Positions 5,889-6,773 of a stretch of DNA of 64,000 bases are shown piece by piece. Origin of the DNA: Escherichia phage vB_Eco_J-01. Positions within the stretch are counted from its first letter, which is position 1. Every line of letters starts with the position of its first letter. The position numbers and the translations under genes are program-made. The DNA lies in the sequence record PQ438393.1, one strand, 5' to 3'. The notes beneath the pieces are model-generated. The model searched no databases. It saw only the letters and a list, made by a program, of their open reading frames with translations, and was not told the DNA's origin.

Positions 5889-6773
5889 ATGTTTGCTAAA
5901 AATTTCAAATCTTGCGTAACCCTGATTTCTGGTGATGGTCTGTCTATTTCCGCACTGAACACAGTAACAGACAAACCGCTGGATTTTGTTGTGGCACAGG
6001 GTCAACAAGCACATACTATTGGTCTTGTTCGTTTTGAAGATGATGGTTCCTATGTAAAAGTGTTCTCTGGTTTAGAGGTTATTAAAGTAGGGCAATCTGT
6101 TAAGAAAGTTAACAAGAAAAAAGTTAAACGCATTCTTAATGAAAAACTCCAAGAGATGGAACAAGAGTTTATTGCTGCAAACCCTACTAAAGAATTCTTC
6201 TTGGACAAAGAAAGTAAAAAAGCAATTGAGGCTGATATCGTGTTTTCTCTGCTCCCAGAAACAGAGGCAGATGATTTCTATAACTATGTTGTTGTAGACA
6301 CTGAAAACAGTATTACCTACGTTCTTAATGGTACTAAGAAAATTAGTGAAGATATCGCTGTGTTTCTTCGTGAGGTGTTGGGTACTTTCCCAGTCCTGCC
6401 GTTTAGTGTACACGAAGAAGCCATTATTAAAGGTTTTGATACCATCTTAGAAGAACATGAGGCTGAACGACTGACTCTTGGTAATTATATTAAACTTGAA
6501 GATTCGGAAGGTGTGGTTGTATGGAGTAAAGAATCCCTTTATGAATCTCGTGCAGTAGAACTTATGGAAGATGGTAAGCACGTTGTTGCCATTGGCCTGG
6601 AATATGACGGTTTCGTTAACTTTATTGTTGATAAAGAATTTAAGTTGAGTGGTATTAAATTCCCTAAATACTTTAACGATGAAGAAGGATCTTTTGAAGC
6701 ATCTGTTCTTCTGTGCTTTAATGAAATCCGTGGTATTATGCAAGACCTTATCAAGTCAACTATTCAAAAATAA
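5889..6773 (+). CDS. rdgC: RdgC-like recombination-associated protein
   Basis: N-terminus MFAKNFKSCVTL, SLLPE...VDTEN and PVLPFS blocks match my recollection of E. coli RdgC. Confidence 0.55.
   Translation: MFAKNFKSCVTLISGDGLSISALNTVTDKPLDFVVAQGQQAHTIGLVRFEDDGSYVKVFSGLEVIKVGQSVKKVNKKKVKRILNEKLQEMEQEFIAANPTKEFFLDKESKKAIEADIVFSLLPETEADDFYNYVVVDTENSITYVLNGTKKISEDIAVFLREVLGTFPVLPFSVHEEAIIKGFDTILEEHEAERLTLGNYIKLEDSEGVVVWSKESLYESRAVELMEDGKHVVAIGLEYDGFVNFIVDKEFKLSGIKFPKYFNDEEGSFEASVLLCFNEIRGIMQDLIKSTIQK

Follow-up and report, generated by a model that had tools for sequence, protein, structure and literature searches.

A divergent RdgC-family protein encoded among the replication genes of Escherichia phage vB_Eco_J-01

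The RdgC-family gene and its product

Within the 64,000 nt stretch of DNA from Escherichia phage vB_Eco_J-01 analysed here (sequence record PQ438393.1, hereafter the window), the open reading frame (ORF) at positions 5889 to 6773 had been proposed in an earlier note, made from the letters alone, to encode a protein similar to the DNA-binding protein RdgC of Escherichia coli. The gene, its ribosome binding site (RBS) and the predicted domains of its product are as follows.

5889..6773, + strand: gene for an RdgC-family protein with an ATG start, 294 amino acids plus stop, assigned from Pfam, PHROG and the sequence and fold of the E. coli RdgC structure 2OWL
5877..5882, + strand: Shine-Dalgarno sequence GAGGAG, 6 nt ahead of the ATG, read from the sequence
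5889..6104, + strand: N-terminal part of the centre domain (residues 1-72), predicted from the model secondary structure and alignments
6105..6260, + strand: two-helix finger or tip domain (residues 73-124, helices 76-97 and 107-124), predicted from the model and the BLASTP and profile alignments
6261..6401, + strand: second part of the centre domain (residues 125-171), predicted from the model and alignments
6402..6770, + strand: base or 'horseshoe' domain (residues 172-294), predicted from the model and alignments

The profile search on which the earlier note had staked its reading gave significant similarity to the Pfam RdgC family (PF04381, E 2.3e-19, 70.2 bits against a gathering cut-off of 25), with residues 33-289 covering positions 31-293 of the 298 in the profile. 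PF04381 was the sole significant Pfam family, and all 27 members of the phage clade that were scanned matched it above the curated threshold and matched no other Pfam family. An end-to-end match was also obtained with PHROG 724, 'exonuclease recombination-associated' (E 1.2e-63). In phmmer searches of solved structures the only significant sequence matches in the Protein Data Bank (PDB) were the RdgC proteins of E. coli (2OWL, E 3.4e-9) and Pseudomonas aeruginosa (2OWY, E 5.4e-6), and a profile of 27 homologues aligned residues 6-289 with residues 4-295 of 2OWL (E 1.2e-19). Direct BLASTP comparison with RdgC of E. coli K-12 (NC_000913) gave 25% identity (E 1e-15).

Structure prediction, suggested at the same time, led to the same family. 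An AlphaFold2 monomer model built from the 27-sequence alignment had a mean predicted local distance difference test score of 89.6 and a predicted template modelling (TM) score of 0.84. Foldseek matched it to 2OWL_A (E 2.2e-22, TM 0.82 over about 300 columns) and 2OWY_A (TM 0.75), and no significant fold was found besides the RdgC structures, the next match having an E value of 0.03. The three-domain RdgC fold of centre, two-helix finger inserted between strands, and base with a five-stranded sheet and long C-terminal helix was present in the model, and its order of secondary structure, with long helices at 76-97 and 107-124, fits the centre, tip (finger) and base layout described for bacterial RdgC (PMC1885664, PMC2965237). 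The proposed RdgC similarity is thus borne out by PF04381, PHROG 724, the 2OWL sequence matches and the fold, and by profile and predicted fold the product of 5889..6773 is almost certainly an RdgC-family member, a true but divergent one.

The N-terminus and the two internal blocks that the earlier note had likened to E. coli RdgC were all recovered in the alignments. Phage F6-K7 aligned with E. coli F4-K5 in the N-terminal F-K motif, SLLP at residues 120-123 aligned with E. coli 114-117, and the block KK..ED...LR..LG..PV.P.S at residues 150-173 aligned with E. coli 145-167; an additional G-K block aligned residues 229-230 with E. coli 226-227. Residues 1-72 hold the F-K motif and their last strand ends in K72-K73, with K7 corresponding to E. 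coli K5 and to P. aeruginosa R4, a DNA-binding residue identified by mutagenesis (PMC1885664). The base of the finger is strongly basic (KKVNKKKVKR, residues 72-81), and the fingertip carries a 7-residue insertion relative to E. coli. In the second part of the centre domain K150/K151, E154 and R161 are conserved, equivalent to E. coli K145/K146, E148 and R155. The base domain consists of a beta-sheet and a long C-terminal helix (269-293), and its G229-K230 and K257 correspond to E. coli G226-K227, at the horseshoe interface (PMC2965237, PMC1885664), and K254. Column counts from an alignment of 192 sequences showed that the near-universal residues of the family are all retained in the phage protein (K7, K72, K107, L122-P123, R161, G229 and K257, for E. 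coli K5, K73, K101, L116-P117, R155, G226 and K254). Within the horseshoe network, E. coli K227 is kept as the invariant K230, and Q212, E218 and H222 are replaced by E215, R221 and L225, leucine being the residue most often found at the H222 column among the sampled sequences.

The Shine-Dalgarno sequence overlaps the TGA stop codon (5876-5878) of the upstream 92-codon ORF at 5600..5878, and AGGAG is marked as RBS at the equivalent place in the record of phage phi92. This overlap suggests that the rdgC-like gene is probably co-transcribed with its neighbours, and its translation is possibly coupled to that of the upstream ORF. The remaining ORFs listed across 5889..6773 are shorter, with 40-113 codons, and use other frames or the opposite strand, and the G+C content of the gene (36.6%) is close to that of the whole window (37.1%). 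The window and phi92 copies of the gene differ at 13 nucleotides, and all 13 differences are synonymous third positions, a pattern which indicates a real gene that is expressed and under purifying selection. The encoded protein is acidic overall, with an isoelectric point (pI) of 4.8 and a net charge of -16.

Occurrence, neighbouring genes and the search for a recombination partner

The DNA of the gene was 95-99.7% identical to 55 phage records, nearly all of Escherichia phages of Justusliebigvirus (phi92-like, Stephanstirmvirinae), and positions 1-25000 of the window were 98.9% identical over their full length to phages JLBYU50 and Nernie. The protein itself is 100% identical to the product of phi92 gene 087 (YP_009012418.1), labelled there as 'exonuclease recombination-associated; predicted RDGC like fold / DNA-binding; putative recombination-associated protein'. 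Phage phi92 has the same protein with the same neighbours as the window; the isolates differ, their DNA being about 98.5-99% identical. Across records the identical protein is variously named 'exonuclease', 'recombination-associated exonuclease', 'putative recombination protein' and 'hypothetical protein'. Four of the matching records (MG065639, MG065645, MG065656 and MG065689, named 'Campylobacter phage A150, A145, C3, A110a') were 98.5-98.8% identical at the DNA level for the gene and 25 kb, and their Campylobacter jejuni host labels look doubtful.

More distant homologues, at 40-77% identity, were found mostly on phage contigs of about 140-155 kb, and tblastn detected relatives in 236 of 50,697 phage records, among them the phi92/phAPEC8 group, phages of Klebsiella, Citrobacter, Salmonella, Serratia, Shewanella and Edwardsiella, and 93 Vibrio phage records including ICP1, the gp173 of which is annotated as rdgC. 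The remark that phage copies are uncommon therefore stands as a matter of proportion, yet such copies are well documented (phi92, hrdC of P1, ICP1 gp173 and those of some lambdoid phages), and RdgC-family genes have been recorded in P7-like plasmids as well. When 1.84 billion cluster representatives were searched with a profile, 1,354 relatives were obtained at E <= 1e-3 and only 9 at E <= 1e-30. The phage clade forms a small and divergent offshoot of a large family. The feature was known before this analysis, since the identical protein is publicly annotated, the family is in PHROGs and classical phages have homologues; phage RdgC copies are a minority and not a discovery, and with RdgC-like annotations in phi92 and dozens of close relatives the gene carries little weight as a new find.

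The genes surrounding the rdgC-like gene form a block reaching from a DNA ligase to a polymerase exonuclease subunit, all on the same strand.

3480..4643, + strand: ATP-dependent DNA ligase, from PHROG 114 (E 2.2e-75) and the phi92 annotation, in which the start is equivalent to 3528
4841..5563, + strand: MazG-like nucleotide pyrophosphohydrolase, from PHROG 671 (E 5.9e-28) and the phi92 annotation
5600..5878, + strand: 92-amino-acid protein without assigned function, the ORF directly upstream of the rdgC-like gene
6848..7060, + strand: 70-amino-acid signal-peptide protein, the ORF directly downstream, from the phi92 annotation
7153..8187, + strand: divergent flap endonuclease (FEN)-type 5'-3' exonuclease, from PHROG 107 'exonuclease' (E 3e-54) and PF02739 in four homologues
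8184..9146, + strand: DNA polymerase exonuclease subunit, RNase H-like, from PHROG 403 (E 5.8e-108) and PF13482 on homologues

In the phi92 annotation a further short ORF (gene 090) separates the ligase gene from the MazG-like gene, and beyond 9146 follow genes for an HNH endonuclease, thymidine kinase, thymidylate synthase and ribonucleotide reductase. The 7153..8187 gene has a GTG start codon, and no RBS was identified for it in the phi92 record. Its product gave no direct Pfam or PDB sequence match, but the PHROG 107 match and the PF02739 domain in four homologues lead us to read it as a very divergent flap endonuclease or 5'-3' exonuclease. Metagenomic phage contigs with an RdgC of no more than 40-47% identity show the same gene order (RNA ligase ... 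DNA ligase, a protein of 242-245 amino acids, one of 88-94, RdgC, one of 65, one of 330-364 and an RNase_H_2 protein), which argues that RdgC belongs stably to the replication block in a myovirus lineage with genomes of about 140-155 kb. Directly after the RdgC stop codon, positions 6777-6833 contain a sigma-70-like site (TTGACT, 18 nt, TAATAT, with an upstream TG) and a 9-bp G+C-rich hairpin of the CCUACCUAC...GUAGGUGGG type followed by CUUUU, just ahead of the AAGGAG RBS of the next gene. A terminator scan did not call this hairpin, the fold of which only modestly beat shuffled sequences (z -2.0), and Rfam gave no RNA family anywhere in the window.

The Pharokka-style annotation of Nernie contained no RecA/UvsX, Red-beta/RecT/Erf or Sak-type protein, and no annealase or UvsW/UvsY-type mediator. 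With no recombinase annotated there, the RecA-type partner, and hence the RecA met by the phage RdgC, is probably that of the host. Other genes noted elsewhere in the window are given below.

25681..26343, + strand: serine recombinase, Pfam Resolvase (E 8e-22), annotated as 'DNA invertase' in Nernie
28434..29129, + strand: DprA-like protein, PHROG 768 'DprA-like DNA recombination-mediator protein' (E 4e-60)
58309..58860, - strand: NADAR-domain protein, PF08719 (E 3e-36)
58861..60264, - strand: homing-endonuclease-like protein of 467 amino acids, with four CapR repeats and a T5orf172 domain
60339..61466, - strand: AAA+ ATPase of clamp-loader/DnaC type, adjoining the 58861..60264 gene

The ATPase at 60339..61466, the one candidate ATPase checked in the window, was considered as a recombinase and rejected, being AAA+ clamp-loader/DnaC-like and not RecA-like. 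A recombination module formed by this ATPase and the 'endonuclease' at 58861..60264 was likewise rejected, as the endonuclease is of homing-endonuclease type and the ATPase is AAA+. The Nernie homologue of the endonuclease is annotated with about 390 amino acids, the window ORF being longer at the N-terminus. The DprA-like protein gave no Pfam match, to DprA or otherwise, and the serine recombinase sits in an otherwise virulent phage genome.

Possible action on host RecA

Bacterial RdgC forms a toroidal dimer, binds DNA without sequence specificity and requires its finger to load on circular DNA, and it inhibits RecA strand exchange and counters the loading of RecA by RecFOR (PMC2965237, PMC1885664). 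A head-to-head homodimer with a pore of about 30 A and inhibition of LexA cleavage also belong to the description of the family. By analogy with the E. coli and P. aeruginosa proteins, a dimer of the phage RdgC would encircle double-stranded DNA without sequence preference, with the basic finger assisting its loading, and by gripping the duplex and competing for single-stranded DNA it would deny that DNA to RecA filaments and counter RecFOR-mediated loading. The target would be the RecA/RecFOR system of the host. Gapped and forked intermediates of phage replication would in this way be kept from unproductive RecA-mediated reactions, and RecA activation (SOS) would be damped during infection. 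An anti-RecA action is the simplest reading because replication of a virulent phage makes many gaps, flaps and ends, here without an annotated recombinase. Taken as a whole, a divergent RdgC that belongs to the replication and nucleotide-metabolism block of phi92-like phages and acts as an anti-RecA clamp is probably the best explanation. The particular function, to keep host RecA/RecFOR off replicating phage DNA and to lower RecA activation, is drawn from the bacterial proteins and is given a little better than an even chance. A replication-linked RdgC in a virulent phage without an annotated recombinase would make a tractable case for how lytic phages handle host RecA.

Several points weigh against an anti-RecA clamp of the bacterial kind. 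The gate-interface residues R118 and F120 of E. coli RdgC are needed for stable DNA complexes and for function in vivo (Briggs et al., PMC2965237), but the phage finger ends in LLPETE where E. coli has LLPRAF, replacing R118 by E124 and F120 by E126, and R122, a DNA-binding residue of P. aeruginosa RdgC (PMC1885664), is replaced by D128. Only about half of the eight pore-lining basic positions that bind DNA in P. aeruginosa (R4, K70, R81, R122, K146, R198, R208 and R252, from mutagenesis) are basic at the aligned column. R4 and R81 are clearly still basic (K7 and K80), the K145/K146 pair is matched by K150/K151 with a register that varies between alignments, and the K70 position has basic neighbours in K72/K73; R208 is replaced by V211 or W212 and R252 by G255, and R198 is ambiguous owing to insertions and deletions. 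Judged from the gate residues and D128, ring closure, and hence tight binding, may differ from that in E. coli. Furthermore, the six NCBIfam RdgC models (including NF001462) all scored far under their cut-offs, the best at 72.6 bits against 330. About two thirds of the phage genes are annotated 'hypothetical', leaving room for an unrecognised recombinase or annealase. The P1 homologue hrdC was non-essential in a CRISPR interference screen (PMC10695390), by which any function may be conditional. Finally, a literature search covering ICP1, phi92/rV5/phAPEC8, anti-defence and RecA inhibitors returned no experiment on a phage RdgC. Mentions of RdgC in papers on ShosTA, retrons and lambda small RNAs concerned host RdgC only, as in the ShosTA paper, in which the antitoxin ShosA pulls down host RdgC among other recombination proteins. 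By its NCBIfam scores the phage protein is not an equivalog of bacterial RdgC, and these low scores may contribute to the inconsistent names in the records.

E124 and E126 are nearly invariant across the 27 members of the phage clade, and in the 192-sequence alignment the F120 column holds F in 93 and E in 44 sequences. Positions 6238-6273 of the window (residues 117-128) include SLLPETEADD where the E. coli and P. aeruginosa proteins read (S/T)LLPRAF(S/I)R, and the equivalents of R118, F120 and R122 are all acidic. On this comparison a closed ring, if one forms, must have a different construction at one of its two dimer interfaces. In the RdgCs of phi92/phAPEC8 and ICP1 type an acidic E-T-E-x-D patch replaces the hydrophobic and basic gate contacts of bacterial RdgC. 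A retargeted protein, in place of a simple copy of bacterial RdgC, is an unlikely reading, in which the ring would close in another way or remain open until a partner is encountered, or the acidic patch would engage a host protein directly. The host partner could be, for example, RecA, the single-stranded DNA-binding protein SSB or host RdgC; the phage would then have a dedicated anti-RecA and anti-SOS factor, which would help it to evade RecA-dependent host responses. The acidic replacement of the gate in the phi92- and ICP1-type clades is a mildly new point of this analysis, and the motif offers a simple handle for mutation.

The protein could alternatively be a positive factor in recombination or replication, as Neisseria RdgC promotes RecA-dependent pilin variation, and would then channel or stimulate recombination-dependent replication and the formation of concatemers instead of inhibiting RecA, in line with the suggestion of the earlier note that a phage copy could regulate such replication. 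The location of the gene in the replication block agrees with such a role, but all biochemical data on RdgC are inhibitory, and with no recombinase, annealase or UvsW/UvsY-type mediator annotated in the related Nernie genome we consider this improbable. Shielding or compaction of DNA independently of RecA, by a nucleoid-type clamp that coats DNA or its ends against RecBCD, restriction or other defences or that condenses the DNA, has a slim chance of being correct. RefSeq lists E. coli RdgC as a nucleoid-associated protein, and RdgC was reported to prefer DNA ends, to bend DNA and to condense it at high concentration (PMC1885664); nuclease blocking by RdgC, however, is without evidence, the acidity of the phage protein is unlike that of typical coating proteins, and it matched none of the PADLOC defence or anti-defence models.

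A switch or exclusion protein like RexA of phage lambda is suggested by the structural relationship of RexA to RdgC (PMC11077077), and the authors describing lambdoid RdgC homologues proposed a Rex-like role for them (PMC12315714). In RexA, though, only the globular and dimerisation domains align with the centre and base of RdgC (PMC11077077), while the window protein matches RdgC itself over its full length, finger/tip domain included. The flanking genes encode the 92-amino-acid protein and the 70-amino-acid signal-peptide protein and no RexB-like multi-pass membrane protein, and a PADLOC scan of RdgC and these two small neighbours gave no matches. The phage is moreover virulent, with the gene among replication genes and not in a prophage or immunity region, all of which makes a RexA-like function very unlikely. 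A literal exonuclease, as many GenBank records have it, is rejected as next to impossible, because the name was taken from the Pfam title 'Putative exonuclease, RdgC' and the wording of PHROG 724 without a biochemical basis, nuclease activity is not detectable in E. coli RdgC (PMC1885664), the fold is the RdgC DNA-binding fold and Pfam finds no nuclease domain or motif; the label is misleading and should be 'RdgC-family DNA-binding protein'.

Comparison with known RdgC proteins

The RdgC proteins of E. coli (b0393, 2OWL) and P. aeruginosa (2OWY) share with the phage protein the Pfam family and the three-domain fold, and likewise the F-K N-terminus, the SLLP hinge, the KK..E..R block, the G-K of the base domain and a basic two-helix finger. 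They are only 21-25% identical to it and slightly longer (303 and 306 amino acids, respectively, against 294), and the phage protein is the more acidic (pI 4.8 against 5.3). The bacterial genes lie on the chromosome, whereas the phage copy lies among the replication genes of a virulent phage.

Other phage relatives come from different settings. HrdC of P1 and the lambdoid RdgC homologues belong to temperate phages, and in some lambdoid phages the gene adjoins the cI repressor gene, early-left (PMC12315714). RexA of lambda has distantly related globular (centre) and dimerisation (base) domains and binds DNA non-specifically (PMC11077077); it works with RexB, whereas the window RdgC has no RexB-like neighbour, and with the PADLOC scan empty no sequence-level similarity between RexA and the window RdgC was detected. 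The RdgCs of ICP1 (gp173) and Klebsiella phage KP13-16 are of the same family at 28-29% identity. ICP1 has in common with the window protein an acidic residue at the F120 position (LLPTTE), and in KP13-16, a phage of the same subfamily, the K-x-F gate of bacterial type is retained.

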